DNA from: Cyanidioschyzon merolae
Lineage: Eukaryota
Reading direction: 5' to 3' (one strand)
Length of the DNA: 64,000 nucleotides
Assembly: GCA_000091205.1 (NCBI GenBank)
Contig: AP006502.2
Below are positions 1,292 to 50,455 of this stretch, one piece after another. Numbering within the stretch: the stretch's first letter is position 1; every line of letters starts with the position of its first letter. Below the pieces are notes generated by a model that saw nothing but the letters and a program-made list of their open reading frames with translations, was not told where the DNA came from and did not search any database. Made by a program: the position numbers and the translations under genes.

Positions 1292-2146
1292 TTCGGACCA
1301 CCGGTTTACACCCTCGAGCAGTTGTTTCTGTTCCACGCTTGAAACGGAAAGGAAGCGTGCATGGAACTGGCGTAGAATTGAAGCCCGTCGCGCAAACGTT
1401 GCTGCGCGCACCGTTGAGACGCACACGGTCAACGGACGCGTTCGTGCTGGAGGCATTCGAACGGAACATATCCGGTGGTGCGCGTGATTGCCTTCAGAAA
1501 GGAAGCATACAAGGGTCCTGCGATCCCCGGGCGGGTGCCGAAGTGCAGTCCCAGCACCGGACGCAATATGGATCGAAAATGCAGGGACTTGCTGGCGTCT
1601 TTCCCGCATTCCGCTAGAGACGCTTGCACATCTAGCAGCGCCCAGAAATATCTGCTGGCTATGAAAAAGGTTGCGGAAACGGAACTGTAAGCGCGGGGGC
1701 GTTACTGCAGGAGTTCCAAGTGGTGCAACCCAGGCGCCCAGTTTGCAGCGGAACTCTGCAACCGCATCCCGCCGTCATGGCGAACAAGCACACAGCTTGC
1801 GCCAAGCAGACGCACATGATCGATACTTTCTCTCGCACACGACGCAAAGGATATGCATTCGACACGTATTCCGAGTTTCCTATTCCGTGGGCGATGCGTC
1901 TCCAGTACGTGTTGGCGCGTGAACGCTCCGCGTCGGCTGTCAGTACGGATCGTAGTGCTGGATGCTGGAGGCGAAGCGTCTCCATCGCACGTTTTTGAAA
2001 GCCTGCACGCATGCCGGGAGGCAGCGCGCATGCGTGCGCGCGCACGCATCGCATCGCAGCGCGCGCACGCATCCAAATCCTCCGTGCTCGTTCAAGCTCG
2101 TCTTGGGGTTGAGGATCCGCTTTTACGACAACGCAGAGAGGAACCT

Positions 2147-9454: not shown

Positions 9455-9462
9455 TATATAAG
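9455..9462 (+). promoter_or_regulatory. TATA box (TATATAAG) about 53 bp upstream of the Fanzor-like ATG
   Basis: Canonical eukaryotic TATA in gcagTATATAAGagg. It is followed by an A-rich leader, and the ATG is at 9515. Confidence 0.4.
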
Positions 9463-9514
9463 AGGAGCGTTCAAAGAGGGTTCTTTTTCAAAAAAAAACT
9501 AAACAAGGAAAGTT

Positions 9515-11801: not shown

Positions 11802-11818
11802 GGCGCGGGTCACGCGCC
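11802..11818 (+). other. GC stem-loop (GGCGCG-ggtca-CGCGCC) immediately after the Fanzor-like stop codon, near the right end of the element
   Basis: A perfect 6-bp inverted repeat with a 5-nt loop, read directly. It is conserved in copy 2 at 40240-40256. Its position at the 3' end of the nuclease ORF is where TnpB/Fanzor guide-RNA scaffolds and IS605-type end hairpins lie. Confidence 0.35.
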
Positions 11819-11963
11819 ACTACTGTACACCGGTGGCGTCGTTCGACTCTCGAACGGCGTTTGGTACGTGAGGAACAAGTTACCGGCCTCTGATGCGTGC
11901 TTCGCTTCAAGCCTCGGGTGACAAAGTCGTTTTCATCAGGACTGTACCGTTTCTTTCTTTCGT

Positions 11964-12917: not shown

Positions 12918-13952
12918 ATGAAGCGTTTTCCTGTGCAACAACGGGATGCTGAGGATCCTATCGAAGAGATCGCAGCCAACCGCTCACAAGCGTTTGCGTA
13001 AACGCAGTCCTTGCGCCATATCGGTCGCCGAGGTTGATCCAGCGTTTACGTACAGCGTTCTGTCCATTCATTTGCTTTCGATCAAACGATGTAGTTGCAT
13101 ATGAATCACATGTGACATGCAGTTGGGAGAAGCGGAATGGCACACGGGCTCCCGTGTATCGTACTAGGATGCAAACGCATGTGCAATGTGTGTGTGTGTG
13201 TCTGTGTAAAAGGGAAGTCTTGAATCGGCTGCAATCCACGGATGAATTCACACCACGCTTTGAGAGTTTTCTGTCAAGATCTGGGTTTCCCTGACCATTT
13301 GTGAGCTCTCGTGATGGAACAAAGCTGTTTTTGGATATAGAACGTGTTTATCGAGGACATTTTCCATGGATATCAGGTGATATTCAGAACAGGGGATTCT
13401 ACAATGCCTGTACCAGCATAACTTGTTTGTTTTAGGTGTATTATCGCTGGTATTCGATAAATTAAATGAATTTATCGTGTAGATTGGAGAAAGGTCGCGT
13501 AAATACTTGATGATGTGACTGGTAGTTTGCGAACAACGGCCTTGCATGTACGCATCAGTCACACCACATTCAGCAGGTGTGTGAATCACGCGCCTCGTAG
13601 ACCTTCCAATGAACGTCGTGTACCCGAAACAGAAGTTATCAAACGATATCCACGCGATTGTCTCGTATTCAATGTATTCCCGTATAGAATCCCACTGAGA
13701 AATTCGATTAGTGAAGCCACCGGACGTGAACTATTCGCACTGTTGACATGGACGGCGTTGAATAGACATGGATGGATAAAGGAGAAAGCACGCTTGGATG
13801 CCAAACCGTCTCGTGTTCAAAAGTGCACTGTCGATTTCGCAGTCAACCGATGACGCCGCTTTCAGGTTGGAAAGATGCTCGTTTCACTCGATGAGATTTC
13901 AGTCGGGAGACATGGCAGACTTGTATGTAGACATTGAAAGAGAGGTAAACCG

Positions 13953-15885
13953 CTGTTCGTAAGGAGGAGACGAGCGAGCATGCCGATATCATCCGTTCGC
14001 GGGCGATTCAATCGTACGATCGCCTAAACAGGTAACACAATACGCAGGACCTAACAGCACCTCATCCTTCGTCGAGGCACTCGTCGGGTTTCCCGCTTCC
14101 TATGATGTTCCGTGCTGCTTTCAGGAAACGCTGGTTTCCATCACTCAGAATCTGCCAAGGAGTATGCAACTGAGGCTGGCATTGAGCCGCTCTTCGTGCC
14201 CGCCTATTCTTTCTGGCTCACTCCGATTGAGGGCGTTCCCTCTGTTCCCGAACGCCATTGTTACGTTAACGGATCATTAGACGGGTCACTCGCTTCTACG
14301 ACACCGTTCTTTGAGGAATCGTTCTCTGCACTCAACAATCCTGAGCCGCTGTGTTGCTTTTCTGCTCGTTGGCGGGATGCGGTGGAGGCGCGCGCTTCGG
14401 TCTGTGGGTGTTCGCGCTACGGAAAACGCCATGAAAAGGCACCTGAGACAGCACAGATCCATGGAGACATAGAAGGAGCGAGTTCCGGAGCCACCGTCTA
14501 CCCAGTGCCTCTGGAATCCGACGAGAAAGCGTACATAGCGTACAGCGACGATACCCATGACTCCCCGCCATGTCAAGGACACGGCGATGGAAGAGCTGGT
14601 CTCCGCGGGCAAGTACGCAGCATTCGAACAACTCTGCGAAGGGCAATCAGGAACGCGCCCAGGTTTTCTTGCCTACAGGGATAGGCTGAAGGAAATGTAC
14701 ACGGGCGACAGACGCTGATGGAATATCAATCAGCACGCACTTTGTGAAGCCGGGACCTCTGTCGCGACATTGGACGCATGCCCGAGCCCTCACAGTAGAG
14801 GAAGCGAAGCGAACGCTTTGTGGCGGGCGTGGATCCCGCGTCGAAGAACATCACATTCATCGCCGTATCGCTAGATATAGCGGACGCAACCAAAGACCTG
14901 ACCTGAAACCAGGTGAAGCCGTTTAACTTTCCCACTACGCGATTTCATTGGGATTCGGGTACGGTGGAAGTCCGGAGGTATCCGAACATCTGGAACGACA
15001 AGGTCGGAACCGATCCCGATGCACCGAGCACCGTACGGAGCAGAGGCGAATGCTTCGTGCGCTTCATTCAGGAAGTACGCGAGTGTCGAAATGAACCATA
15101 TGGGCGGTTGCTGGCAGGATAACCTGGGATCACGCTGAACTCGGCAACGGTATCGGTAGAACGTAGACACGACTCGCGCATTCGCCACTTCCCTCAACGG
15201 GCCGGAAACCCAGGTGATCTCAAAGTCGTGTCGTTTGGTGATACAAGTCAATGGCCTTAGACGTGATGCAATGCCCAGAAGCCCGCACTCCCGGTCAAAC
15301 GGCCAGACCGAACAACGAGTCCAGGAATCGAGTATCTGCGAGACCCATCGATGCGTTCAGCACGACATGTGTACGCATCACGAGCATGCGGGCCCGCTGA
15401 ATCTGGTAGAAAGAAGAGCGCGACACATAGACGGATGCACGAGAAGGTGCACAGTGAGGTGACTGAGCGTCAAATGGCGAGGCGGTTGCAGGTGGGAAAC
15501 GTGCTATGGTGTGATTCCAAAAGGCATTCATGTGCGCTGGGGCACGCCCCGCATTGAGCACTGAACGTGTCGAACGGCAACCGATGATGACCCGCGCTTC
15601 CGGAGCGTCCAGCTGCTTTGTATGGCGCGAATGTTCAAGCGAATCGTTTCATAGCTCGTGTAGGCACTGTGGAAAATGCGGAGCACGTTCGAGAGCGTAA
15701 AATTAGGGTGCCGGAGAGAAGGCACTGGATTCTCGCCTGGATCCAGGCAGTCGTGTAGACCGGTTCAGCAATCCATCAAGGCTGGGTCACCTTGTTTAGA
15801 GATAAACCAGGGCGGATTTCCCTTTGGGAGACTGGTGAAACAACAAGGGATACGATTCCTCGACATTGCAGGGTATACATGAAGA
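13953..15885 (+). mobile_element. Repeat family B copy 1: 1.9-kb interspersed repeat containing a Tc1/mariner-type transposase C-terminal fragment
   Basis: Co-linear with 30454-32386 at an offset of 16501 bp. Paired ORFs are near-identical and the flanks are unrelated. Confidence 0.65.
14106..14684 (+). pseudogene. DDE transposase tail (Tc1/mariner/IS630-like), 5'-truncated and degenerate
   Basis: LLSGNAGFHHSESAKEYATEAGIEPLFVPAYSFWLTPIEG aligns with the mariner ..DNAxxHxs..vkefl...gi..l.wPaYSPDLNPIE block, including the third catalytic E. The DDE residues upstream are absent: the repeat begins only about 150 bp upstream. Confidence 0.5.
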
Positions 15886-16058
15886 AACATTTTCATTTTT
15901 GCATGCACTGCGCTCTTTATGGGGCACAAATCCGAATCCATATGAGGTTTCATGTTGAATGATCACCGAACCCTAACATGCCACATGTAAGCTTCCCGCA
16001 AACTCTTTCAGGATAAAGTTCTCATAGAGGCTCGCTGCATCGCGAGCCTCGGAGAGGG

Positions 16059-16087
16059 ACCACCACCACCACCACCACCACCACCAT
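16059..16087. repeat. (CAC)n microsatellite
   Basis: caccaccaccaccaccaccaccacca, read directly. Confidence 0.8.
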
Positions 16088-18609
16088 GTTTTGGTATTCC
16101 TGCGGAGAGCGACTGCGGACATCACTCGCGCGGCCGAGCGCTCGTCGTTTGTACGCGCCCTTAGACCAGTTCACGGGTTTCCGCTGGTCAAAGATGACGA
16201 TTCGTAACCACCGTTTCCCTTTCGAAGGTCGTAGTGCGTCTCACTATTACACGGGGGACAGTCGTGTGTCACGTACAGGTGCGAGCGCGCTGCACACTGC
16301 ACAACCGCTGCGCGGGTTCGACGCAGGGACACTGCGGCCTGCAGCGGGTCAGCGGTACCCGACCGCAAGCATGCGCGCTCCCTGTGCTGGCTACCAGCTG
16401 CCACCGGACTATGTGATTGTCGCGATTGCAGGAGCTTTGCTCGCTGGAGCGGGGTTCATGCTTCGGAGTCTTGGTGATGTGATCGGAGAAGAGTCGCGAC
16501 TTCCGTCAGCGAGCAGTGCGAAGACGCGCAGGGAGCTGTACGGAAGCCGGCGTTATTTGCAGAAAAAACCGCCTCGAGACACAAAATGAATACAGATATG
16601 CCTCTAAAGACTAGCCAAGAGATGTTTCTCTGCTCAGCAAGGCGTCACGAGTGTTTTTAATTTTGGAGAAGGGGAAAGCGCGAACGATTCTCCAGGTCCG
16701 TCACCAATGAGGATTCGTAATGGAGCAGCAGATGCTGTGCATGGGACACGCGTTTCTTGAGCAGAGATTCACCCGGTCGTGTGTGACTAGAGCCAAAATA
16801 TGGCGTGACCAGCGTGGGTGGAGCATGTGCGCGAACAGGTCGGGCGTCTCTCCCGGTGGTATTCATCGCCATTGAAAAATTGCTTCCAGTGCGTTTTCTG
16901 GTCACTGTGCATCAGGAAAAGAGCTTTGCTGACCGCGCATAGAACGCTAACGCATCGACTTTTTATGTGCATTGAGTATGTGGCCGCGTCAGGGCGATCC
17001 TCTGCGCCTTATGCGCCGTGCACACGGTACCGGCTCGATACCGAGGTGGTGGTCGTTTGTCGGACTCGAGGCGAGCACAGGTGTAGCTGCACTGCGTCGA
17101 GACATTTGAGATTTTCAGGTGGTGCGAAATCGTGTTTACTGGACTATCAATCAGCGTCCTTGCTAACGATGCTGTGGCTCTCTTGCGTCAGGATGGACAC
17201 CGAGGCTGGCAGCTGTTCCGTAGGAGACGCGACCTTAACACACGCGATGCGATTTCGCTTGTTTTCTCGATGATGCTTTTCGGGGCCAGGGCCCTGGTGT
17301 TGTCGGCGTCGTTGTTGCGGATGCAGTTGCTCGCCCATGGGCCATGAGCGTCTCTGAACGTAATCTCGCCATGACTGGGACTTTGGATGAAACCGCTCTT
17401 CCTTGATGGAGCGCTGTGCGGCGGCGGATGGATCTCGGAGACATTTGTATCAGCTGAGTGTTTTATGGCCCGGCGACTGTCTGTCACCGTTTTTACGGCG
17501 ACAACCGGATGCATGCATCGATCCGAGGCTGATATGAAACCGGATACATCCGATCGCCCATATCTGTGAACGATTTTGTATGGTATATAATCGATAAATC
17601 TGACCAGAATCCCCGGAATGCGCGGTTGCCTTCGGCGACCACGAAAGAGACCGCCGCGTGCCTGTCGATGCTTGGATGTCCTGTCGACGTGAGGCGACTC
17701 TTCCCATCGGAGACGCGGATACGCTTCAACCAATTGAGGGTTAGCGGGCGCCGATCCAACCGTGGAAGCTTGCTGCTACGCTGAATGCTTCGTTCCCTAA
17801 GAGACAGGGTTTTAATCGATCGAAAGACAAATTTGGACTGGCCAACACGCCCACGAAGGCTCGCGGCAAAAATCCCGAATCCTTCGCTGCCAACATCCTC
17901 TAGAAATCGTACAGCTTTCCGATTCTCGTACGGGCGTCTGCTCTTGGTTGCCAGAGGGTTGTGAGCTGAACGACCCCACAACGCGCCTTGGCTCTCCGTG
18001 ATGCCGGTAGCAGTCGCGCGCTCCTGCATCGCTGCGTACCAGCTCCGATCCTGACCCATGACGGAGCGGGCGCGCCAGGTCTTTTGATCACCGACATGCG
18101 TGCGCAGCGACGGTCTGTCCTGAATATCAATATTCGTACAGTTTCTGTTTCGTGTTTCCAGCACGCCGCGATGCACGTTTTCCGCGCGCGAGCATTCAGT
18201 TGCCACGTGCGCCGTCGCCAGGGAGATTGCAACGCCACTGCCAGTTGCGATCTGCGCTGCGTGATGCAGGGCACGCTGTGCACGCTCGCGCACCGCTGCG
18301 ATTCAAAAAGATCGCACGATCCGGTGCACGCGCGCACGCATTCGCCAGCATCCGTGTCGCACATGCGCGCTCGCACGATGTGTGCTATCATGCGACCTCT
18401 AGTGCGTACGCACGAGGTATCGCGTAACCCTTGTGTGCGAGTTGGAACCGGGCACTCTGAACGAATCGATAACGCATTTGACAGTCGAGGGATATTTTAT
18501 GCTTAAGGGAATGGGGAAAGGTTGTGCTGTACGATTTAGGGACGGGAGCGCAGCGAACACACTGGGCGAGACGGAACAGTCTTGTGCTGGTCGCTCGTGT
18601 TACGGGCAG

Positions 18610-20322
18610 ATGTTCGTGTTGAGCCGTGTGCCGCCAGTTTTCTCGCGCAATGGTTTCTCGTTGAGCAAGATTAATAGAGGATGCACTCTGTCCTTGGGTT
18701 CCGGTATACGTCGTTTTGGTTGCGGCGGGCTCGACGCTCGCTCGAGTGCTTGGTGCGGTCAACCGCGCTGCTTCGTCCACACACCCAGTTTCCCGCGCGT
18801 GCTGCGAGGCGAGAAAAAGCAGCGCAGCATTGGTGCGCAAGGTTCCCGGCGAACTGTTATGGTAGCGCTCACGTCGAAGCCGGTGCCGTGGAAGCGCCTC
18901 GCGGGCTGGTTCGTGGACGGTTTCCCTGTGTGGTGCATGTTGGCGTCGTATCTCGCGCTGAGGTATCCTCAGGTGTTCATTTCCGCACCATTCGTTACGA
19001 GTCCACAGGGCGTGACCTTCGGTTTATCGCTTATCATGCTGTCTATGGGTATGACGCTAACCTGGCAAGATGTGGGTCGGTGTCTGGGTTTGCAGCCGCC
19101 CGCCATGGAGGCAGGTACGCCATCGGGGACGCTGGCGACCTCATCGATGGTACGCCGCGCAGTCCTCGTGAATACGATCATGTGCTTCGTGGTCATGCCG
19201 CTGGTTGCTTACCTACTTGCAAAGACAGTGATGACCTCAACTGCAGTCGTTTCATCGCTCTTAGGTGCATCGCTGGACACTGTCAAAGCTGTCCCAGGTG
19301 GTATGGATGCGGCTAGTAAGGCTCTCAAGTCAGCGATCCTGACTGGCATGGTCCTGCTAGGATCCGTATCTGGCGGACAGGCAAGTAATCTGTGTACGTA
19401 TATCGCCAAGGGCGATGTCGGCATGTCCGTTACAATGACCACCGCCACGACGCTTCTCGTCACGGTGGCGTTGCCGCTGATCACCTCGCTGTTGCTGGGG
19501 GCGGCAGTACCAGTTGACGGCGCTCGTTTGGCCACCTCAACGGCACGCGTCGTCCTGCTGCCTCTGGCGCTTGGTATTGCTTTGAATACCTATGTTTTAC
19601 GAACAAACGAAGCCCGCAGCAGACTGGCACCATGGCTACCGGTTCTTGGTGTTGCTGCGACCCTGTTCACCATCGTGGGTGCCCTATCACCAGTCTCCGC
19701 AACGGTGCTTGCTGCTCTGAGTGAAACTCCTTTGGTGCTGGCAGTGGCCGGCTTTCATATTTTTGGCGGTTTCCTCGGTTATTACATTTCGAAACGAATG
19801 CCAGGTTTCTACGGCGATGAAGCCACTGCGCGCACCATCTCCATCGAGACGATGTTCAAGTCGCCAGCGCTAAGTTTCATTCTCGCGGCGAAGCACTTTG
19901 ACGGTGCCTGGGTTCTCGTACCGTCGTCAATTAGCCTTGTTGTGCTGGCGCCTATCGCTGCAGCGTATGCAGTTTTGCTGCGCCGTTCCGCGAGCCTGAG
20001 CTTTCCAGCGTTCATGGCGGGCGCCTCGAGCCTGACTCCCTTCAGAAATCTCAAACAAGTGCCGCTCGGCAGCGCTGCACCGTCACCGCAGCCCGTTGTT
20101 CGTTCCAATGTGCTCACCGTCGGAGAAACTCGAGTGAAGTCGCAGCCGCCCACAGCGCTGCCGATTGTGACCGCTCCGGGCCGTCTCCTGCATCCGCGGG
20201 TACGTGTCTACTTTCGAAACGCTCCGAATCCCGTGATCGTACCAAAAAGCGAGCTGAGAAACTTTTTGCTGAAAATGCGGAAAATGAAAGGAATGCAGGT
20301 GGTTAAGATCGTGGAAGTGTGA
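18610..20322 (+). CDS. BASS-family (bile acid:sodium symporter-like) plastid-type transporter with a transit-peptide-like N-terminus
   Basis: The family core is LSLIMLSMGMTLTWQDV followed by many TM helices. The ATG at 18610 begins a Ser/Arg-rich, acid-free stretch (MFVLSRVPPVFSRNGFSLSKINRG...) typical of a chloroplast transit peptide. The track ORF begins further upstream at 18433 with a non-conserved extension. Confidence 0.7.
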   Translation: MFVLSRVPPVFSRNGFSLSKINRGCTLSLGSGIRRFGCGGLDARSSAWCGQPRCFVHTPSFPRVLRGEKKQRSIGAQGSRRTVMVALTSKPVPWKRLAGWFVDGFPVWCMLASYLALRYPQVFISAPFVTSPQGVTFGLSLIMLSMGMTLTWQDVGRCLGLQPPAMEAGTPSGTLATSSMVRRAVLVNTIMCFVVMPLVAYLLAKTVMTSTAVVSSLLGASLDTVKAVPGGMDAASKALKSAILTGMVLLGSVSGGQASNLCTYIAKGDVGMSVTMTTATTLLVTVALPLITSLLLGAAVPVDGARLATSTARVVLLPLALGIALNTYVLRTNEARSRLAPWLPVLGVAATLFTIVGALSPVSATVLAALSETPLVLAVAGFHIFGGFLGYYISKRMPGFYGDEATARTISIETMFKSPALSFILAAKHFDGAWVLVPSSISLVVLAPIAAAYAVLLRRSASLSFPAFMAGASSLTPFRNLKQVPLGSAAPSPQPVVRSNVLTVGETRVKSQPPTALPIVTAPGRLLHPRVRVYFRNAPNPVIVPKSELRNFLLKMRKMKGMQVVKIVEV

Positions 20323-20464
20323 GCAGCGTGCGCCTCAGGGTCACACAAAGTTCGCATCTTGACTTCATTGTCTAGTTTCTTGGGAGCATACTGCAACACG
20401 CTGCTCTGTGCACGCCGGAGCGCATGGCAGGGACCCTGCTGTCGAGAACGCTTCTCATCCAAAA

Positions 20465-20640
20465 GTCCGTAAATATACGAGGGAAATCGATCCAGCTGCA
20501 GTATCAGTGCATCACCACTATTCCCGAGGTATCCCGAGCATCGCAACGTATATCCCAGAGTCCGTAAATATACGAGGGAAATCGATCCAGCTGCAGTATC
20601 AGTGCATCACCACTATTCCCGAGGTATCCCGAGCATCGCA
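20465..20640. repeat. Two tandem copies of an 81-bp unit (period 95 bp) in the region downstream of the BASS gene
   Basis: gtccgtaaatatacgagggaaatcgatccagctgcagtatcagtgcatcaccactattcccgaggtatcccgagcatcgca occurs at 20465-20545 and again at 20560-20640. Confidence 0.85.
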
Positions 20641-21070
20641 GCTGCTGACAGCGGATCCTGCCCAGTTACAAGCCTCGGCCTGTGCGTACAGACGTTACGT
20701 GTCACGCTCGGAGGACAGCATTGATGCATACATGTCAATGGACCGGTTGCGCAGACACGTGCCACAGCTTTTCTATGGACAAAGCCTCTGGATACTCCGT
20801 ACTGCGCAGTACGGTGTCCCTGCGAACGCGAACGGGGTCGCTTCCCGCCGGTTCTTTGCTCTCCGCCCGTACCGCGCTGACACCATAAAACCGAGTACTC
20901 TCTTCCGCATGTCAAATTCCTATGCATAATATCCTGCACGTGACAGCAAACACCGAGCAGCTCGTGCTCCTGATGCGTTAGTATGACCTGCAAACAAGTA
21001 CAGAGAAACTGGCGTTATACCTCGCGCTGCTCGGGCATCATGCCCGTTTAACTGAACCTTGGCGTTCTCG

Positions 21071-23410: not shown

Positions 23411-25798
23411 GCAGGTAAATTCGCACATTTTGACAATTCCAAGGGACTGGAGCATCGCCTTCGTATATCGATGCACATGTATCCCAGATTTCAAAGTCTT
23501 GCTTCATGGCGGGCATTTTTCGTTGCGGTAGTTCACGCTTCCGTCGAAAGCGCCGTATCCGAGGCGTCTACGTCGAACAACGCAAAGTGTCGCGGCACAC
23601 ACTGCACTGCAAAGCTGCATTATCACGCGAATCCGAGTTTTTTTTTCTGTTGCCAGAACGTTTCCATTCACCAGGGATTCCCGCTTGCGCGATGGATATT
23701 AGCATTCGGCATCGCAGCAGACGCTCCCGCGCTTGACTCCAGGCTCGATCACATATACCTTATCTCGCAGATCGAAGTCGTTTTTCACGCTCTACCGTGC
23801 GCCAAGTGCCTGACGTGAGCGTCTGCGCCAACAACGGTAGCGCCGGTGCGGTCACAGCATGGCGACAACACCGCATGGTCATTCCAAGGAGCGCTTCGGC
23901 TCGAGGCGTGCCTCACCTGACCCAGCGTCTTGGCTCATTAGCGATTTGTGCTCGCAACCAAGTGCCATATCGCTCGCGTAGCGGCAGTTTCGCCCCACCC
24001 GTATCAGTTTACAATGGAACATGAAAGTGCTTGCTCCGTTCCTGGCAGGCAACTGTTTTCGTACTCTGTTTAGAAATGCGGCTTCAGGATGCCAAGTGCA
24101 GCAACAAGGGCTTTCGGATTCATGGAGAGTTTCGGGATTACCGCTCGTTTCTTCCGAATGGATCCTTCGATGCTCTCCCGGTAGCATTCGTGACATCACC
24201 GGAATCGAGATGATCCGCGAGGCAATCGAACAGGGATTTGCAAAACCTAACCATATTACGATCCAATTCATATGTACGCGTTTGCACGCGTCTACTTTCC
24301 TAACATGTAGCATACTCCAATCAATGGTGCTTGGTGTTTTCGATCTATCTATTGCGAGGCAACTCGTGGAGGTAGCCATTCACGTGGCTGGTTTGACGAG
24401 GAAACCTACTCGACGCCGTTTCCCCGGCGACGTTTTCTCCCAGCTCATGCCCAAAGTTCGCTGAACTTGGAAGTTCAGATACTCGATTCCTTTCGAAAGA
24501 CAAATGCTTTTCTTTTTGAAGTCATCGACGGAGCGTCATTCAACAGTAGCGTGATACCTGCCAAGGGGTGCGCTCCCAGAGGCTTACGTCTCTCCTGCTT
24601 GTATGGAAAAAGGTCTTGGACTCGGACTCGAGTCATCGCAGCGAACTGTCCCAGTCGAGCATAAGTCAGCGCTTTGCGGGAAGCGAGCGTAGACAGATCG
24701 GCATTTCTGGACCAGTTCTCCGGACTGGATTTTCCCTCTGGCACTCGTTTCACCCTGGGCAACTTCGCGTTTCACTCATTTTCTATCGAACCGGCCGCAT
24801 GCGTCTGCGTGTGTAGCGAACAGTGTACGCTCGCGGCGGATCAACCAGAAGGAGCTCGGCATCGTGAGGTACGGCAACTGACCCGGAAATCGAGCTTGGC
24901 ATCGAGGATAACCCTTTGTATCTGTCAAGGGCATGTACTGAGCAATCAAGCGAGCGTTTACGCGGCAAAGGGCAATAAACAAAAGACGAGGTGTCGTGGA
25001 CGTATTCGACCGCCTGACCACATCCAAGTGTCACCGCTGCAAATGGCGCCCCTGCGTTGCATATACTGAAGAGACAAATGGCGATCGACGCGTGCATCGC
25101 CAATATCGTCTGTTCAGGAAATGCGTAGAAAAATGCCGAAAGCCGGTAAGTGAGACCCTCACCACTGCCATCAACACCCTTCGACTGCATGCAACGGATT
25201 CGGAAGCAAACAAGAGACCAGCGTGTTCCAAGCTCCGAGACCTGTAATAGGAAAAGGAAGCAGTCACTGAAAAAGCTCCCATTGGCTGGAATTCATAGAA
25301 GTGCACTGAGAAGCCAACGTTGGCACGTGCACCCGAGTTACAGAGAACCCGATCGACTTTATCCTGAATTGGATGTAGCGGAAACGCGTCCCAAACTTCA
25401 GCAACAAGCGTCCTGACCTCCGTTCAGCAGACGCTTCATGACACACAGTCGTGCGCAAGATACGCACGTCGGCATACGCATGGGCCTTATGAGCATCATC
25501 CCACACGGAACGACAGTTGCTAGACATGTGTCCTCGCGATGATCCACAATGATGCTCAGGTTGGCGTATATAGTGCGTCTGTTTGCTTCATGAACTGGTG
25601 CGCTTCGGAAATCGGTGTCGTTTGCCATCGCATGAATGCAGTTCTCCGCTTAATGAATCGTGACTCGACAAGCCGAATTTCATGTCGAGCGGTTATTCTC
25701 AAAGCGCCCTTGGCTGGTACCAGCGACCGGTGTCCGTAAAATGCTCGAGTCCGCATGAGCGTTTCCCTGCAGGTCTGAATACACCTGTGGTGCGGGTA

Positions 25799-29715: not shown

Positions 29716-30453
29716 CGGTAGCGTCTTGTCGTGGTATGCGGCGTTGCCTCGACTCGTTGTGCGCAGATGCCTTGCGAATATAGGAGCTCAGTGTCAGCGG
29801 AGTTCGGCTGATGGTGAGGCTACGATGCTGCCACGTTTTGGCGTGACAGCAGAAGGAACGGACGCAGCATCGCGCGTGCTGCTGGATTCCGAGCTGTGAA
29901 CTCTGGAACACCTGTGCCAGCACCCCCGTTTCATTTTGGATCGTTTGTCTCCCCGCAATTCAACAGCAGGATTTGTATCCTGTAGACGGCAGGGAGGTTG
30001 CCGAAAATCGTTATACTGTCACTGCAAGCATTCGAAAAAAATGACGTTGACGAGTACGTCATGTTGCTCTCAGCAGGTGATTGAACTTGTCTTCTCGTTG
30101 TGTTCATTCGGAAGGTTGTGTATTCATGCTAGAACTTTCCATAGTCTATCCACACAAATGTCTCTTCGTGAGTTGATTTCAGCGCGTAGTTTCTCTGAGA
30201 TTTACAACCGGAGTACCCAGAAGATAAGAATTTTTCACACGGGTGATCTGGACGGTGTCAAAGAGACAATGATAAACACAGAAAAGAAGCGCGCTTCTGT
30301 CAGCGACGGCCTCCGGTTCAGCAATACGACATCGAGCACGCACTGAAACGCAAACCCGAATGATAGTTGGCACTGGTTTTCGCCTCAGTCGATGAGTCTT
30401 TATCGGGAATGACTGATTCATCTGTATACGGGTATTCAAAGGGAGACAACCTG

Positions 30454-32386
30454 CTGTTCGTAAGGAAGAGACGAGCGAGCATGCCGATATCATCCGTTTG
30501 CGGGCGATTCAATCGTACGATCGCCTAAACAGGTAACACAATACGCGGGACCTAACAGCACCTCATCCTTCATCGAGGCACTCGTCGGGTTTCCCGCTTC
30601 CTATGATGTTCCGTGCTGCTTTCAGGAAACGCTGGTTTCCATCACTCAGAATCTGCCAAGGAGTATGCAACTGAGGCTGGCATTGAGCCGCTCTTCGTGC
30701 CCGCCTATTCTTTCTGGCTCACTCCGATTGAGGGCGCTCCCTCTGTTCCCGAACGCCATTGTTACGTTAACGGATCATTAGACGGGTCACTCGCTTCTGC
30801 GACACCGTTCTTTGAGGAATCGTTCTCTGCACTCAACAATCCTGAGCCGCTGTGTTGCTTTTCTGCTCGTTGGCGGGATGGGGTGCAAGCGCGCGCTTCG
30901 GTCTGTGGGTGTTCGCGCTACGGAAAACGCCATGAAAAGGCACCTGAGACAGCACAGATCCATGGAGACATAGAAGGAGCGAGTTCCGGAGCCACCGTCT
31001 ACCCAGTGCCTCTGGAATCCGACGAGAAAGCGTACATAGCGTACAGCGACGATACCCATGACTCCCCGCCATGTCAAGGACACGGCGACGGAAGAGCTGG
31101 TCTCCGCGGGCAAGTACGCAGCATTCGAACAACTCTGCGAAGGGCAATCAGGAACGCGCCCAGGTTTTCTTGCCTACAGGGATAGGCTGAAGGAAATGTA
31201 CACGGGCGACAGACGCTGATGGAATATCAATCAGCACGCACTTTGTGAAGCCGGGACCTCTGTCGCGACATTGGACGCATGCCCGAGCCCTCACAGTAGA
31301 GGAAGCGAAGCGAACGACTTTGTGGCGGGCGTGGATCCCGCGTCGAAGAACATCGCATTCATCGCCGTATCGCTAGATATAGCGGACGCAACCAAAGACC
31401 TGACCTGAAAACAGGTGAAGCCGTTTAACTTTCCCACTACTCCATTTCATTGGGATTCGGGTACGGTGGAAGTCAGGAGGTATCCGAACATCTGGAACGA
31501 CAAGGTCGGAACCGATCCCGATGCACCGAGCACCGTACGGAGCAGAGGCGAATGCTTCGTGCGCTTCATTCAGGAAGTACGCGAGTGTCGAAATGAACCA
31601 TATGGGCGGTTGCTGGCAGGATAACCTGGGATCACGCTGAACTCGGCAACGGTATCGGTAGAACGTAGACACGACTCGCGCATTCGCCACTTCCCTCAAC
31701 GGGCCGGAAACCAGGTGATCTCAAAGTCGTGTCGTTTGGTGATGCAAGTCAATGGCATTAGACGTGCTGCAATGCCCAGAAGCCCGCACTCCCGGTCAAA
31801 CGGCCAGACCGAACAACGAGTCCAGGAATCGAGTATCTGCGAGACCCATCGATGCGTTCAGCACGACATGTGTACGCATCACGAGCATGCGGGACCGCTG
31901 AATCTGGTAGAAAGAAGAGCGCGACACATAGACGGATGCACGAGAAGGTGCACAGTGAGGTGACTGAGCGTCAAATGGCGAGGCAGTTGCAGGTGGGAAA
32001 CGTGCTATGGTGTGATTCCAAAAGGCGTTCATGTGCGCTGGGGCACGCTCCGCACTGAGCACTGAATGTGTCGAACGGCAGCCGATGATGACCCGCGCTT
32101 CCGGAGCGTCCAGCTGATTTGTATGGCGCGAATGTTCAAGCGAATCGTTTCATAGCTCGTGTAGGCACTGTGGAAAATGCGGAGCACGGTCGAGAGCGTA
32201 AAATTAGGGTGCCGGAGAGAAGGCACTGGATTCTCGCCTGGATCCAGGCAGTCGTGTAGACCGGTTCAGCAATCCATCAAGGCTGGGTCATCTTGTTTAG
32301 AGATAAACCAGGGCGGATTTCCCTTTGGGAGACTGGTGAAACATCAAGGGATACGATTCCTCGATATTGGTGGGTATTCTGGCAGG
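30454..32386 (+). mobile_element. Repeat family B copy 2
   Basis: Co-linear with 13953-15885 and carries the same transposase-tail ORF, here at 30613..31185. Confidence 0.65.
30607..31185 (+). pseudogene. DDE transposase tail (Tc1/mariner-like), copy 2
   Basis: 190-aa ORF near-identical to 14112..14684, with the same ..AYSFWLTPIEG motif. Confidence 0.5.
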
Positions 32387-35207: not shown

Positions 35208-37893
35208 TAGGTGTGAGAATAGCGGGCGGTGTCGACGAGCGAACTCCGTCCAGCGCTTCAGCAGGCCACTGTGTGAAGGGCGATGACGTCGACGGCGGCG
35301 GTGACAGAATCGATCGCGGCAGTACGATCGTCTCTGGTGCGGCGGAGGCGATGGCGGATATGCTGCGGCGCTTTACATGTCGACAGATTCCCAGGATTTC
35401 AAAGACCCGGAAGGCAACACGTTCAAAGTTCGTTGCTATGAAGCATGAGCTTTGGAAAGCGGGTTACGAAAGGTAACTCGCGTCGGGCATACCGTTCCCT
35501 TGCGGGCGAAGCGCACGTCGGCAGCGGGCGACAGCCCCGCATGCTGCACAGCGCCGAGCCCCTGCCTGAAAGAGCGTCCGCTGCGCTCGGGCGTCGCTAC
35601 CCAGCAGTAAGTTCGCAGAGTAGGCCTGCACGTGCTGCATAGTGACCGGAGCCCGTTTCCAGCAATACTTTGCGCGACTCGCAGACCATGGTTCACCGAC
35701 TTGAGGTAGGCTTGCATCAGCGGTCTTCCCGTTCGCAGGCGAAACTGCACTGAGCTGCTCGTTCACCTTGAAAGGTCGCGATTGGCAAGCACGGTACAAT
35801 GCAGAACATTGAGGGGGAACGGTACCGCATGTGCAAAGTGCTCACATCGATCGGCGTGCGGAACGATATGTACATCCATTTTCACGCGATACATATCAAC
35901 CATCATCATGGTTTGGCTTCTGGTGCCTCCAGACCAAACCCCGTGCTCAGAGGATCGCGCTTCTTTCGACGCATGCTGGTGCACTCGCCCGAGGACAGCG
36001 GGAACAGCAAACGCATGTCGCCGCAGTGCATATACGCTGGATGGACGACCACTCGCTTTCGAGCAGTCGACGCTCGCGAGTATTCAGCAAACGTCTTCAT
36101 CATGACGATGTCGCAGTTCCGAGGAATACGCTGTGACACAGCGGCCGGTGTCGCGTTCCTGGCATCCCGCTCCCTTGTTGGCGCTCGTGCGTCCGCATGT
36201 GCACCGAAGGACGCACCAGTGCGCGTCTACGCATTCGGGGTACCAGCTGCGTTGCGACGCCACCGAAAACTCGCGAGTACGCGAAGCTTTGCTGGACGCA
36301 CACCCTAGTATTGCTCAAAACGAGCACCAAGTAGAGCAGCACCTGCCCATGGAGTTGGTACGACAACAATGTCGTGCGTGGTAACCGAGCATTCAGGTGC
36401 TGAAGCGCGCAAACCCGTCACAACCGAAAATACCACCGTCATCGCGAGCGTCTCGCAGACAGTGCAGGAGGCGACGCGTACAACCAGGTCGCCTTGTAGG
36501 AGGCCTCCCTGGGCCGCTGGTGACCCAGCCTCTACCTGCACCACCTTTGCGAACGGTCTCAGGTTCGACTGACCCAGACTCGTCTCAGTCCAGTCTAAGC
36601 TTTGTGCTGGCTGGTTGTCTCCGGGGCGGTGTTCCCGGCTCGAGGCAGCCCGCACCGCTGGTGCGCTCTCCACGACTCGTGACGCAGACGCTGTAGACGG
36701 TGCGGTTTGCGTGTGTGCTGGCCCGCTTGGAAGCATCTCCGGAAGCAGCCTTCCAGTTTCTTTCATTATCAGATAATAGTCGGTTTGCAGGCGCACGAGA
36801 CGTTGACGATACTGGCGGATCTGGTGTACATCGCAGTCCGAACGGGGGAAGCCGTCCTCGTGAACGAGTGGATCTCGCACCCCGGCAGGCGTGGCTTCTA
36901 AGCAGGATACCAAGTGTTCAATGTCACGCACGAATTCTTCTTACTGTAGGGCTAGCGCTAGTAGGCGCTGTACGCTGTCGGAGGTCATTTGTTCGACGTC
37001 TCAGACAGGCGAACGACGGCGCGTAGCTCCAGGCGTTGCCCCGGGAACCTTTACGGACGAGGTCGTTTACGAGGCTCAGCGTCCGAAGACCATAAAACGA
37101 AAGTATCATCGGAACTTGGCTCGAAAGGAATCTGGGCAGAGTGCTGACGCTGTATACGATTTTTGAATGACGACAACAACAGCGACAACCGGCCTCATGG
37201 CATGGTCAGAAATCGGGACTGTCGAGCAGTGGGGCGCACGAAAACCGCACAATTCAAACCAGTTTCTCATTCCAGCGTCTGTGCAGAATGGACTGCAAGA
37301 AACGGGAATAAACGTGTATCCGTAGTCGGGAAGACTGCGGCGCATAGTTTGTTTATGATCAATAAAACGAACGAAATTCCTGTTGAGTAGGGTGATGCAT
37401 ACCTCGCCCGCACAAGCGTAAGATACTACAATGGCTACGCTTTTGATAGAGGCGTCGAGGGGTATCGTGCCAGGCCCCTGCATCCCCTTGTCTGTCGGGG
37501 CGGTACTGCGATGGGCAGTAGCGTCGGCACCAGCGACAGAACCTATAGCAAGAGTTCATTCTACGTGAGTTTCCGATGTACAATACGTTGTTTTGGCTGC
37601 AGTGCACCGGTGAGAGCACGCATGTGCCAATGCGGGGTGTCGGACACGTGTCCTTCATCGATCGGTGCAGCGTCTCGCGCGGTGCACGCATCGCGCTCAG
37701 TGCGCGCACCTAGGAGATCAGGCAGGCGTGAGACACGACGCGCATGCCGCCGTTGAAGGGAAACGTAATCGTGATCAGCAGCGTCTAGCTCTCGTGTTAA
37801 AGTTGTATTTTCGTTGACTTTATGGGCAAGTATAGTTTTCAGTTCAATTGTGTTTGAAAACTCAAACAAGTGTATTCTAGTGTTTTGTCGCAG

Positions 37894-37901
37894 TATATAA
37901 G
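37894..37901 (+). promoter_or_regulatory. TATA box (TATATAAG) of Fanzor-like copy 2
   Basis: Same motif and spacing as in copy 1. Confidence 0.35.
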
Positions 37902-37955
37902 AGGAGCGTTCAAAGAGGGTTCTTTTTCAAAAAAAAAAACTAAACAAGGAAAGTT

Positions 37956-40239
37956 ATGAAAAAGCAAGTCGACGATCCTGGAGGCCCAGTGTCGCCGGCT
38001 GCCAGAAAGAAAACAAAACACAGTGCCGAGTCCAGAAGAAGAGGAGAAGAAAAAGAAGCAAAAGGAGGAGGCTCTACGTCGAGGGATGCAAGAAAGACGA
38101 CTGTACGACGAGAAGGTGGTGAAAGCTGGTCTTCTTGGACATATCAAGGATCCCTACAGGGAAAATTTGCGAGACGCTATCAGAAACCGTGTCGACTCGT
38201 ACTCCAAGAGTATTGTCAAAGCGTCGTCAGGACTGATGCACTCGGCGAGGGAGATGTATCGCGACGTGACGCACATGCAAACAGTCGAGGTCCCAGACGA
38301 GTTGTTCGATACGACCTCTATTCGATACTTGATGCTCGGTACAGGGGAAACGCGGACGGAAAATGAGCGAGTGCATGCCCTCCACGAAAAACATCCCTTC
38401 TACAGCTTCGAGGGTACTCGATACAGGGTTGACTCGTGTATTTACGAATACGGAGCGATAAAGTACCCCACGAGCCTGAATAAACATTTGACCGTGAACC
38501 TCGAACGTTTCATGATACGCGCCGTGTTTGCACTCTACCCGGGCATCTCTCGCAAAGCGATATGGATCATCATCGATAGCATCAAAAACGATAGTAAGAA
38601 TGAACAGGAGATCGAACTTGTTCACGAGAAGACATCATGCAGGAAAACGAATGAAGCTTCTGTAATCCGTGCGGCTATACAAGAGCACCGTGCAGCACTG
38701 GGGCTGGCGAGTCCAGCAGAAAAGATATCAGAGTTGAAAAAAGATAAGAAAAGATACGATCGCCCTGTCCTGCGCTATTCCATATTCCTGAACGGAGAAC
38801 TGGCACGCAGGGCCGATATGGAGCAGGGTGTGGAAGCAAATGCAGTGCCGGAGAAACGGGAAGCTGCGCTTCTGGCGAGGCATTTCAACGTCGTTCGGTT
38901 ACGCGAGATCAAGTCCCATTTGTGACGATCGACTCCACAGTCTTTCAGGACATCATGAAGGAGATCTGTCCGGATTTCGATGTCAGCAGGGAGGTGTTCT
39001 CCGGCGAAAACCGGGAGACGTTTGAAATCGAAGATATTCTGCTTCGATTTCAAACGCCTCAAAGTGAGCAAGCAAAAGCTATCCGCGGGGATGATCGAAA
39101 CCGATGGCGTAGCCATGTGAGTTGACTATCGGCGGTTGAAAAGCGATCGTCCTGGCCCGTGTTCGATATTGCCCGTGACGAAGCATGAAGATGAGAAGGA
39201 GGCGGGTCCTGCGACGCAGGAGGTGGAGGATAACGGCTTTATCGTTGGCGCGGTGAAGCATGATGAAAACAAGAAGGCGGATCTTGCCACACAGAAAGTG
39301 CAGGATAACGACTTTGTCGTTGGCGCGGACCCTGGGAACACGAATATCATAGCCATCGCAGTACCGAAACGTGCGGAATATGGTCACGACGGTAACTTGC
39401 GCCAGAAGGACATGGGTCTGTCGAGATTCTCGACAGCGAGATACTATCGAGAATCCGGTATAATGAATGCGAGGAAGAAAATCGAGACATGGAATGCAGG
39501 AATGAAGGAGCACCTGGAAGCCTTGAGCGAGTTGACTAGCCGAGGAGCGGACTTTGAAGCTTTTCGGAATTTCATGGAAGTTCGTGTTGCGCATTGGGAT
39601 GCACTGTGGGAGGAGTATACAAAGCCCTGGTGGGATCGTCTACGTATTAATCTATACTGTCGGAAGCAAGCTGCATTCAAGAAAATTTTCGATGAGTTCA
39701 GCGCCTTGGAGGAGGATGAAAGTCAGAGGCTCGCATTAGCGAACGGAGCAGGGCGCTGGGCTCCGAAAAAAGGGTGTACACCAGCTCCAACTACACGAAC
39801 ATACAAGGAGTGCGCAAGGCGTTTCGCTACGATACCTGCAGATGAGTTCCGAACATCGTATACATACCATGGACTCGGGTGCACATTTCAAAAGGTCGAG
39901 ATGGGAAAGTGTTAACGGAGCCCTGAAGATATAAAAAAGTACGGACCGCTGACAGAAGAGCAACTGGAAAGAAAAGCGAAGGCTTGAGGGCTACTCGCAT
40001 TAGTAAGTACAACCAATGGCAAGAAACTTATGGGATTCCTGTATCGCGACTTTGAGGCCGCTATCAATATAAGGGCATGTGCGGTGCTGGAGCATAGACC
40101 TCCAGAGTTGACACGAGAGAATTTTATGGGGCAACCTGTCAAAGTGGGACTATATGAGAAAACTATGAAACCAGTAGCAGGTGGCCGGTCGAGAGAAACT
40201 GGGAGGCGTCTGCAGCTCAGCTGGCGACTTCGTGTCTAG
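37956..40239 (+). pseudogene. Fanzor/TnpB-like RuvC nuclease, copy 2, disrupted differently from copy 1
   Basis: A 2-bp deletion near 37990 splits the N-terminus into ORFs 37956..38366 and 38023..38925. The stop at 38923-25 is shared with copy 1. Copy 2 reads through where copy 1 has TGA (tatCGAgaa here versus catTGAgaa at 11009-11011). An extra stop (gcTTGAggg) lies near 39985. RuvC-I GADPG and RuvC-III RDFEAAINI are retained. Confidence 0.65.
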
Positions 40240-40385
40240 GGCGCGGGTCACGCGCCACTACTATACTTCCGACCGCAGCAACGTTTGGTGGGTGAAGGCA
40301 GCACGCCTCATTTCGAGTGCTGTGCTCGAGTTTATACCCCAGCTGCGGGAACTTTTGCGGATAGCCATTTCTCGCCAAGTGTCTC

Positions 40386-47972: not shown

Positions 47973-49105
47973 TATGAGAGCATAAACTCGAGATCAGGTG
48001 CCCAATCACATCTAGTCTCTTTAGAGCTGACCCAGTATACTCGTTGAGTGCAGCACGTGCAAGAATTGAAACCTGGTGGCGGGAAAAATGTCGAGTTGGC
48101 GAGTGGCGCCGAGTGCGGCGTACCACGTGCTGCCGGTCGAAGCGATGGCATCTTGAGTTGTCCTTTAGGTTCACGTTTGAGCAAAAACTACTCGATGCCA
48201 TCCGCAGGCCCTTCGCCAGCTGCAGCTCAGCGTTGGCATCCTGCGTTTCATACGAGCAGTAGGATCCTGCTATGGCTGGGGCTCAGCGTCGGGGAATTAG
48301 CGGATGTTTTGTCGAGCAAGGCTCTCTGGTACGTAGCAGCGACCTGTAAGCGGTGCTATGACGGGTTGCTCGTGCCAGGAGCGGCCGTGATCGGTTCGTA
48401 CTCCCGAAATAAAATGCCGTGTCAGATTACTACAGAATAGGAGCTTCTCGCAAAGTTCTTACCTTTCGATACTGCTTGAACATTTGTTGAGATTTAGTAC
48501 TTCGACAACCCAGGTATAGCTATAAGGGCTTATAGATTCGTGAGTCGTTTCGGGATTATCGGTTGGGGTGTCGGCGTGGCGCCTTTAGCGATTTGCAGCT
48601 GGAGTTCCTTAGGTTATTGGAAACAAGATGATTCGCGATGCCTGCGAACACGCGCACTTACAATAACCGATGTCATTGACCAGTGCACTCGTGCAAGTTT
48701 TCATGCTTTCCCTTTGGATACCGTGGAGCAGGCGCACATCACGCAATCCTCGGTTTTCCCGATCTTTGTTTCTTGAGGGAGCTCGTGCGCGCAGCAACTT
48801 GCACAGCTGGACTGGCGATGAACAATATTCGACGGTGTCATTTGTCGACTTGTTGACAAGTTCATGCCGAAACACCACTGAAATTTTCACGTCAAATAAT
48901 CCGTTTTGTTCAAAAGACGAGTCCTGCTCTCTTTCTAGCCATCGACGTAACCGCATTCGATACCACCAGCAGCAGCAGCAGCATGATACCTGTCAGGGGA
49001 TGTGCTCCCAGATGCGTCCATTTCATCTCTTTCCATGGAAAAGAATATTTGACTCGGCATTCTGTCATTGCGACGATGGCCTAGTTTCGACAGATTGTCA
49101 TCACT

Positions 49106-49670
49106 TTGCACGAGGTGAGCGTAGATGGATCGAAATTTTTCGACTTGTTCCCAAGCATAGATCATACTTCCCATGCTTGGCGCATGATGATAAACATCGC
49201 TTGCCACAAATCCTTTATCGAATCGTGCAGCGTGCGCCTCTACGTGTCGCAAGCAGCATATTCGCCACGGACGTTGCCCGGAAGAGGCCCGTAATTGTAG
49301 CGTATGGCACCGGGCGTAGAAACTGAGCAGGGCTTGCACGGGAGCCCTCAGAATCCGTCAAGGGCATGAACGGAACGTTAACGAAATTCTTTCCTCGCGA
49401 CAGGAGTCCTTCGAATGAGAGATTGTAGTGGATCCCTACGTAAACATGACCAGCGACAAGCGTCAACACTGCGACGGGCGCACCAGCGCTGTATTCAGAT
49501 GGGATGCACATCGTAAGCGACGTGTAGATCGCAACTATCGCCTGTGCATGAAATGCGTCGACCAGCGCCAGGATCAGCAAAATCGGGATTTGAACGCAAC
49601 CATCAACATCTTTCGACAACTAGCAACGAAGCTGTACGAGTACGAGAGACCGGCGCATTCAAAGCCATAG
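49106..49670 (+). pseudogene. second, unrelated TnpB/Fanzor-like remnant (C-terminal zinc finger plus RuvC-III only)
   Basis: ORF 49428..49670 reads ..TSDKRQHCDGRTSAVF...RNYRLCMKCVDQRQDQQNRDLNATINIFRQ. That is the CxxC..CxxC zinc finger followed by RDxNAxINI, exactly the TnpB C-terminal architecture. An upstream fragment in another frame (FPSIDHTSHAW) resembles the preceding TS block. No RuvC-I could be found upstream, so this is a heavily decayed fragment. Confidence 0.45.
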
Positions 49671-50455
49671 ATAACAGAGTGGACTATGAAGCACTCGCCG
49701 AAGCAAGGCCCAAATCCTGGTTTTCATACCATGGCGATTTACCCAGACTATAGTATGTACGCCCGGGCTGGTTAAATGGACCGGTTCCTCTTTGCCCTAA
49801 AGTACGCAGAGAACACAGACACGCTGAGCGATTCTGAGCAGCACTGGAGTGACTTCTCGGAAAGTGGAACCGTCGTTGGATCCCCGAACTCCATGTCCAT
49901 ACGTTTCCCTTAGATTTCATATTTCTTCAGATGAACGCAATTCGTACATATCTGTTATAATCCGCGAGAAAGCATTTGATTACATGCATCTCGAACTGGA
50001 ACCCAATTCAGCCGAAAAACTGGAAATGGGCATACGAGATCGCCCGTGCGTCCGCAATCCTAACGACCGCATCGACGAAGGTGATCCAACAATGGACAAA
50101 AGATATCTTGCACATCGCCTCGCACACGTCGCATGCTAAATACTCAATCATAGTCATTTAGGCATATTTATATCCTAAAAGTACACAGTGTTTCCGATCG
50201 CCCCCAAGCTGATGCGCACTGCCCGCGTCCCCGCAGACACGCGAAAGAGCGCGCGCGCGCGCGGCTGAAGGCTCGCGATCTCCGCATACCCGCAGTAGCG
50301 CCCCATGGGCGGTGGCGGCAGCGCTCCTTGGCGCCAACGCTGATCCCGCGCATGCATGCGAGCGCACGCACTGTAGCGCGTCACGCTGTGACCTGTAGAC
50401 GCCATAGCATTTCGGGTCCTGAGGCAGTGGAGCAACACGCTCAACATCGACTGAA

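Follow-up and report, generated by a model that had tools for sequence, protein, structure and literature searches.

The locus described here poses the question of how one nuclease gene came to be present twice in a 64-kb stretch of red-algal DNA, broken in both places by lesions that are partly the same and partly different, with the differences between the two copies gathered in patches. The whole stretch is called the window, and all coordinates are positions within it; from its CMT tags it is taken to be part of chromosome 20 of Cyanidioschyzon merolae 10D. Fanzor1 proteins are eukaryotic, TnpB-like, RNA-guided RuvC nucleases, and the gene in question is a Fanzor1 that lies in a transposon of the CMe-1A family. 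Copy 1 (c1) occupies 9515-11801 (ATG at 9515, TAG at 11799-11801), and copy 2 (c2) occupies 37956-40239 (ATG at 37956, TAG at 40237-40239), the interval treated in an earlier note on this DNA. The duplication, both transposon copies, both gene copies, the lesions and the two high-divergence patches are all given on the plus strand. The history considered likely is that a dead Fanzor1 gene was copied by segmental duplication and that its two copies were afterwards altered by inter-copy conversion, by tracts from other CMe-1A copies, and by point mutation and slippage.

The duplicated gene and its transposon

Self-comparison of the window by blastn revealed a direct duplication of host DNA plus transposon, at 6902-11828 (copy 1) and 35341-40266 (copy 2), with 97.9% identity over 4929 aligned base pairs (bp; 97 substitutions and 3 indels) and with identity falling away abruptly at both borders. 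The host portion, about 1.9 kb to the left of the transposon, has intact open reading frames (ORFs) in both copies, and no other CMe-1A locus gave a match to the left of 8808. Because the repeat begins 1.9 kb left of the element in host DNA and its right border (11828/40266) falls 35 bp before the transposon 3' end, it is a segmental duplication that happened to include a transposon, and not a transposition event. Both junction types, that of locus 1 and that of locus 2, are present in hot-spring metagenomic samples, and the duplication is therefore older than the divergence of the sampled strains.

The gene was identified through its relatives (P numbers denote homologous proteins and L numbers metagenomic loci). 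Copy 1 shares 62% amino acid identity with P0001, an intact homolog of 752 amino acids (aa) whose gene lies on a eukaryotic contig of 49 kb. Only metagenomic relatives, P0001 among them, were recovered when 5.8 billion proteins were searched, and a full HMMER scan gave 1507 relatives. Pfam returned no significant match for the ORF fragments or their close homologs, and one remote relative gave a weak match to Cas12f1-like_TNB (E = 0.002). With a shallow alignment of 27 sequences, a profile search of the PDB found nothing; a shallow alignment likewise gave an unusable AlphaFold (AF2) model, with a predicted local distance difference test (pLDDT) of 36.7. The link to Fanzor1 appeared only after remote representatives were added, when the family profile matched 9cf0 (Parasitella, PpFz; E = 2.5e-20), 8gkh (Spizellomyces, SpuFz; E = 2.3e-12) and 9cer (Guillardia, GtFz; E = 1.2e-6); with that profile the scores of the window copies are 395-440 bits. 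The AF2 model of P0001 built on the remote-relative alignment reached a pLDDT of 81.2 and a predicted template modelling score of 0.79, and its top seven Foldseek matches in the PDB, all significant, were Fanzor1 structures (SpuFz, PpFz and GtFz; E 1e-13 to 1e-16), a fold comparison made on this intact homolog and not on the broken window copies.

The RuvC catalytic residues D484, E656 and D725 are invariant or nearly so in the 54-sequence family alignment, and the motifs GADPGNTN, PADEFRTS and YRDFEAAINI are readable in both window copies by three-frame translation. By profile, by fold (WED, REC and split RuvC, tested on the homolog) and by its RuvC D-E-D motifs (GxDPG, DEFRTS and RDxNAAxNI), the window gene is a Fanzor1. 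Directly before the RuvC-I motif GADPG stand two tandem repeats of 75 bp (25 aa) on the plus strand (10741-10889, twin 39180-39328); this acidic unit occurs in one to seven copies among homologs (P0001-P0026) and is disordered in the structure model. Neither window copy has an uninterrupted ORF: copy 1 is interrupted by five lesions and copy 2 by six, where a difference in the length of an A-run is counted, and both copies are pseudogenes.

The CMe-1A family of C. merolae has been described as approximately 150 copies of around 3 kb with some 80% identity to the consensus, which encode Fanzor1, lack terminal inverted repeats and recognisable target-site duplications, and include some copies that are still intact (Bao and Jurka, 2013; PMC3627910). 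Both window elements belong to this family, an assignment made by matching the published description (host, length, identity among copies, lack of terminal inverted repeats, Fanzor1) and not the consensus sequence. Copy 1 of the transposon spans 8808-11863 (3056 bp), its right end taken from the family alignment and its left end approximate, possibly as far left as ~8480. Copy 2 spans 37247-40266, and its last ~35 bp, including a terminal hairpin, are not recognisably kept. No terminal inverted repeats were found in the window element. The stretch 8808-11863 is matched at 77-81% nucleotide identity by 75 other hot-spring metagenome loci, most of them broken, and related stretches in metagenomes of close relatives number 376.

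Shared and private lesions

Lesions were called by aligning c1, c2 and four close metagenomic sequences to the coding sequence of the intact homolog L001 (the same as P0001). Among the metagenomic loci, L004 is the counterpart of copy 1 and its right flank, L003 and L002 are counterparts of the 3' part of copy 2 and its right flank, L082/L005 correspond to the left flank and 5' part of copy 2, and L086 and L087 approach copy 1 from the left. All of these are short-read contigs beginning or ending at the repeat borders.

Three lesions are common to both window copies, as the earlier note had reported. The first (10482-10486, twin 38921-38925) is the loss of 1 bp from a T-run at 10482/38921; it gives rise to an in-frame TGA at 10484/38923 and is seen in c1, c2, L004, L003 and L002. 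The second (10576-10621, twin 39015-39060), formerly placed near 10630, is a net gain of 7 nucleotides (nt) at ~10593/39032 in a quasi-palindrome with 19-nt arms and an 8-nt spacer; native codons have been replaced by the upstream arm (10576-10594), a reverse complement (95% complementary) of the native sequence that follows at 10603-10621, a change typical of template-switch repair. The third (11474-11476, twin 39913-39915) is a TAA where intact homologs have Gln (CAG in L001, CAA in L005). At these sites two family sequences were aligned, L001 and L005, and neither has any of the three lesions; the reading frames of intact metagenomic homologs continue uninterrupted across all of them. In other strains, the three lesions are present in counterparts of both loci. 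Since they occur in both copies and are missing from intact members, they were inherited from an element that was already broken when it was duplicated, which agrees with the proposal in the earlier note that the duplicated master was non-functional.

In L004 (1080-1100 of the extracted segment) the 8-nt spacer of the second lesion is inverted, the loop having flipped between its inverted arms. This 10-bp micro-inversion was considered as a marker of interlocus exchange and rejected, given that the spacer of an inverted repeat can flip repeatedly.

The alternative that the gene is functional, with the shared lesions bypassed by programmed frameshifting, readthrough or splicing, draws on two observations: the -1 and +7 changes compensate, so that the frame is restored after 37 codons (111 nt), and the codons for the RuvC D-E-D residues remain in both copies. 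However, intact homologs have none of these features. Regular rescue by frameshifting, which the earlier note had offered as an option, would need two compensating shifts 111 nt apart, readthrough, and repair of the private lesions, and each copy carries at least two such further stops or frameshifts. Furthermore, the c1/c2 differences are distributed 9:13:15 over the three codon positions and are mostly non-synonymous. Because there is no codon-position bias and most differences change an amino acid, they evolve as in a pseudogene, and neither copy has been under protein-level constraint. C. merolae has very few introns, and inspection revealed no GT..AG interval that cleanly removes the lesions. 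Introns were rejected as the cause of the shared frame breaks, since the DNA of intact homologs is collinear and the frame is disrupted by the loss of 1 bp and by a quasi-palindromic gain of 7 bp. A functional gene is thus regarded as extremely improbable, and the rescue option is not supported.

The lesions that differ between the copies follow a less simple pattern. A TGA at 11009-11011 in copy 1, where copy 2 has CGA (39448-39450), is a CpG-type C-to-T change, just as the earlier note described it; the same TGA has also arisen independently in L005. Copy 1 further carries a +1 C frameshift at 11494, which is also found in L004 and L003 and is absent from copy 2 and L002 (in frame there). 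Copy 2 has a TGA at 39118-39120 where copy 1 reads TGT (10679-10681), and this stop recurs in L004. Neither of the last two lesions was listed earlier, the +1 C having been lumped with the shared stop near 11476.

Two other differences had been ascribed to copy 2 alone, namely a 2-bp deletion near 37990 and a TGA near 39985. The length difference is real, and lies at 38010-38013, where copy 2 has a run of four A compared with six in copy 1 (9569-9574), so that the reading frame of copy 2 no longer agrees with its ATG; the short run is also found in L004, L003 and L005. Likewise real is the TGA at 39985-39987, opposite a CGA at 11547-11549 within a c1-specific patch, and it is shared with L004, L003 and L002. 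Both the short A-run and this TGA occur in metagenomic counterparts of both loci, and copy 1, not copy 2, is therefore the exception at these two sites.

This A-rich tract (9563-9580), which lies about 50 nt into the ORF, is hypervariable in length across the family: a stretch of 89 nt measures 83-91 nt in L001-L081. Here L001 and L011, although intact elsewhere, do not keep the frame of the conserved ATG, so that either translation begins further downstream or the tract is a hot spot of slippage.

Mosaic divergence and its origin

Differences between the copies are strongly clustered. The index of dispersion of the substitutions is 4.5, against 0.96 expected by permutation, and the densest 400-bp window holds 34 substitutions, compared with a permutation mean of 14.7 and a maximum of 25 (0/5000 permutations). 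A uniform identity profile, named in the earlier note as the outcome that would speak against a mosaic, was not seen. Along the block, c1 and c2 differ at 11/1580 positions in 6902-8481, 34/400 in 9641-10040, 5/800 in 10041-10840, 20/280 in 10841-11120 and 14/707 in 11121-11828, with a background outside the patches of ~0.6-0.7%. The main high-divergence patch (38084-38474, twin 9645-10035), with 36 substitutions in 391 bp, is a composite of c1-unique, c2-unique and shared-haplotype sub-blocks. The second (39284-39556, twin 10845-11117) has a core at 11057-11117 with 11 differences in 61 bp, and both haplotypes of this core are also present in metagenomes. Smaller clusters of differences lie at 9334-9393 and 11526-11595. 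At the protein level, amino acids differ at 12.7% of residues 1-150, 17.4% of residues 44-175 and 1.4% of residues 176-322. The 5' patch of the earlier note is thus real, whereas its description of the rest as differing by 1-2% throughout does not hold for 10841-11120.

The earlier note had also suggested two different source elements, which could be independent CMe-1A insertions or a recombinant of two, with the 5' divergence reflecting different ancestry. The core at 11057-11117 differs by 18%, which is a family-level value, and its two haplotypes are found in other strains; in addition, some same-locus contigs carry an element that is ~20% diverged (L086 from ~8450, L005 from ~10040). However, 1.9 kb of the repeat is not transposon DNA, separate insertions would be ~20% apart along their whole length, and the copies have in common three specific lesions, one of them a quasi-palindromic rearrangement, together with the same two 75-bp units. 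An origin from two sources is largely refuted by the shared lesions and shared host DNA, and is considered very improbable.

Segmental duplication of one broken element leaves the question of how the copies have since remained similar, and the metagenomic counterparts bear on this directly. Their unique flanks diverge from 10D by 0.2-1.0%. Within the host part, c1 and c2 are united against L004, L086 and L082 at 10 sites, and sequences of the same locus are united at 0 sites. The distance from either 10D copy to each of the metagenomic copies is ~1.5%, above the divergence of the flanks. In 10041-10840, where c1 and c2 differ at 5/800 positions, the distances to their positional orthologs are 23/800 and 16/800. 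Within the element, four-taxon partitions divide into 21 sites by locus, 15 by strain and 12 swapped, and these 48 informative sites fall into 17 runs against 32.1 expected (P < 1e-5). Individual lesions follow the same patchwork as the partition blocks. The strain-wise grouping is the signature of concerted evolution. The suggestion in the earlier note that conversion homogenised all but the 5' part is therefore sound as regards homogenisation (10:0 at host sites, and 5/800 versus 16-23/800), and too simple as regards the number of divergent patches, of which there are several.

Some of the patches unique to one 10D copy carry alleles that look templated. The c1-unique alleles equal the family-majority base at 8/26 sites versus 1.0 expected (P = 5e-6), and the c2-unique alleles do so at 6/12 sites versus 0.5 expected (P = 3e-6). 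The copy 2 haplotype at 9904-10035 (c1 coordinates) matches the distant member L017 at 15/17 sites, and rare alleles of the copy 1 haplotype at 9937-9956 recur in L048/L049. Because the unique alleles match the family consensus far above chance, these patches point to exchange with third-party family members.

A young duplication followed only by imports has been weighed against conversion between the copies. Here, the block would have been doubled shortly before the strains split, the copies would never have converted each other, and the patches would be one-way imports. The c1/c2 background of 0.6-0.7% falls in the range of strain divergence in the flanks, and the enrichment of unique alleles for family-majority bases fits imports. 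Against this, the 10 strain-grouping sites, with 0 by locus, lie in the host part, which is not shared with other family members; a further 15 strain-grouping sites lie within the element; and the ~1.5% separating the 10D copies from all metagenomic copies is above the flank value. This possibility is therefore judged unlikely, though of the alternatives it is the one given most weight.

It is also conceivable that no templated exchange took place, and that the patches reflect local mutational heterogeneity or artefact, such as clusters from error-prone repair, regional rates or mis-assembly. No donor has been identified, many of the patch changes are transversions, and the templated quasi-palindrome in the same gene shows that local repair-type events occur. 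However, the family-majority enrichment (P ~1e-6 per copy) would not be expected from untemplated mutation, and patch haplotypes recur in other strains or family members. The C. merolae 10D genome is a finished genome, which counts against mis-assembly. Such an origin is held to be highly unlikely, on a par with that from two source elements.

Several points weigh against the conversion history. No identical-tract donor for any patch was found among 80 metagenomic loci, L086 included, a search that did not extend to the other ~150 copies in the 10D genome; the best non-orthologous matches to the patches were 88-93% identical. The patches (5-9%) are less divergent than whole replacement by an 80%-identical donor would produce, which calls for short tracts or for more closely related donors. 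The metagenomic contigs may themselves be mosaics of the two paralogs, which would inflate and thus weaken the locus-swapped partitions; this cannot explain the 10:0 result in the host part or the properties of the 10D copies themselves. Finally, the c1/c2 background of 0.6% is about the strain divergence in the flanks, and within the element alone a young duplication without homogenisation is possible. The case for homogenisation rests mainly on the host part.

With these points considered, the duplication of a dead Fanzor1 followed by conversion is retained as the likely history, and its steps can be set out as follows. In the first step, which is directly evident, an element already broken by the -1 deletion, the quasi-palindromic +7 gain and the TAA was copied together with ~1.9 kb of host DNA in a 4.9-kb duplication, before the sampled strains diverged. 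In the second, evident for the host part and the quiet stretches, the two copies have exchanged sequence by interlocus gene conversion, which keeps most of the block at ~0.6% divergence. In the third, which is read from the allele patterns, short tracts would have been overwritten from more divergent CMe-1A copies elsewhere, or would have escaped homogenisation. This would leave patches of 7-18% divergence and shuffle the lesions, so that a stop or frameshift may mark one locus in a given strain and the second locus in a different strain. The remaining differences would have arisen by point mutation, including CpG transitions to TGA, and by slippage in the A-run.

Two metagenomic assemblies show rearranged structures at these loci. 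The 48.8-kb contig Ga0078972_1003310 (L082, L005 and L087) runs from ~11.7 kb to 39.3 kb of the window, then passes into the 3' half of an element that resembles copy 2 at only ~80%, and after ~5 kb of other DNA and the region upstream of the window it re-enters window 1-7085. Such an arrangement could come from a tandem duplication in that strain, from unequal crossover between two of its CMe-1A copies, or from chimeric assembly. In L086, positions 14756-17319 (ENA ERZ27247228) correspond to window 6902-9478, and are ~99% like 10D to ~8450 and 12-29% diverged thereafter. The position may be occupied by another CMe-1A copy in that sample, or the contig may be a chimera; there is also a hint here that the left end of the element lies to the left of 8808.

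A more speculative extension is that active Fanzor1 copies with omega RNAs cut at or near element ends, and that repair from other copies drives both the conversion patches and locus-level replacement. This would parallel TnpB-assisted homing in bacteria and, if true, would explain why some family copies stay intact. Hints come from contigs in which the same flanks enclose element sequence that is ~20% divergent, namely L086 for locus 1 (from ~8450) and L005 for locus 2 (from ~10040), and from one contig that joins the 5' half of copy 2 to the 3' half and flank of another element. However, L086 and L005 could be assembly chimeras, and nuclease-driven exchange is considered improbable.

Surrounding features and relation to known systems

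The window has a G+C content of 56%, and its ORFs are long and intron-free, with eukaryotic domains (E2F/DP, SAP, Armadillo and Nas2). Of eight window ORF translations, six match annotated C. merolae 10D proteins exactly, including CYME_CMT068C, CYME_CMT069C, E2F and zeta-carotene desaturase. In the host part of the duplication, an intact gene for a Nas2/PDZ proteasome-chaperone-like protein lies on the minus strand at 7866-8492 (Pfam Nas2_N, E = 7e-15), with an intact twin at 36305-36931 in copy 2; this gene and two adjoining ORFs are doubled and intact in both copies of the duplication. The 3'-terminal ~200 nt of the transposon are conserved across the family and end in a hairpin with a 10-bp stem (11837-11859, plus strand), which is conserved in the family and gone from copy 2. 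As regards a structured guide RNA (omega RNA) at this end of the element, RNAalifold gave only -10.6 kcal/mol for the family 3' ends, with no supporting covariation, and did not recover the terminal hairpin as a consensus structure; an Rfam scan of the whole window returned no match.

Other repeats were observed in the window. A second, unrelated direct repeat (13948-15876 = 30448-32377) is 98.2% identical, with a DDE_3 (Tc1/mariner-type) transposase fragment in ORFs 14112-14684 and 30613-31185 and with stretches at 14784-15068 and 31298-31880 that the Fanzor1 profile matches weakly; the repeat may be the degenerate remnant of a transposon with another Fanzor1 gene. The regions 24055-25277, 48472-49696 and L001 16500-17750 resemble one another at the translated level only (30-45%, tblastx, both strands), have no Pfam match, and may be an old dispersed repeat or gene family. 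A tandem duplication of 89 bp (20457-20545 and 20552-20640; 97.8% identical, 95-bp period) lies within ORF 20408-20929 and begins just downstream of the SBF transporter ORF 18433-20322.

The significance of the locus beyond annotation is small. The family has already been described, and segmental duplication, concerted evolution, ectopic conversion, CpG decay, homopolymer slippage and quasi-palindrome mutation are all well known. Both intervals should be labelled as CMe-1A/Fanzor1 pseudogenes in a segmental duplication that doubles a Nas2-like gene. A caution also follows: because conversion moves lesions between loci, lesions in repeated pseudogenes are not a simple record of descent, and those that seem copy-specific can predate the copy without them. 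The hot-spring metagenomes, which hold hundreds of family relatives including intact ones such as P0001, are a possible source of active red-algal Fanzor1 nucleases.

Among known systems, the solved Fanzor1 nucleases (SpuFz1, 8GKH and 9CEU-9CEZ; PpFz, 9CF0-3; GtFz1, 9CER-T) resemble the window family in profile matches and in fold (template modelling score 0.46-0.71) and share its split RuvC with D, E and D, which are invariant in the window-family alignment, although sequence identity is merely 12-15%. Unlike them, the window family has a variable 25-aa tandem repeat inserted before RuvC-I, and the usual CxxC...CxxC zinc-finger cysteines are largely replaced (HH..C....C); the window copies, moreover, are pseudogenes. 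Bacterial TnpB (IS200/IS605) and miniature Cas12 proteins show a distant likeness in fold (Cas12f, Cas12-phi and others, E 0.005-0.1), and the subterminal hairpin at the 3' end of the window family is a further resemblance. In contrast to these bacterial systems, the window family is eukaryotic, its N-terminal half is much larger and no TnpA partner was seen.

Compared with CMe-1A as published, the window pair represents two of its ~150 copies, with no difference at the level of the family; carriage in a segmental duplication with host genes, and a conversion mosaic, are not described in that paper (PMC3627910). In more general terms, paralogs within this genome are closer to each other than to their positional orthologs, discordant sites fall in blocks, and patches carry family-consensus alleles. 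Segmental duplicates are known to evolve in concert, and dispersed transposon copies to undergo ectopic conversion, for example yeast Ty and primate Alu/L1 elements; the pattern seen here is like theirs and in no way unusual.

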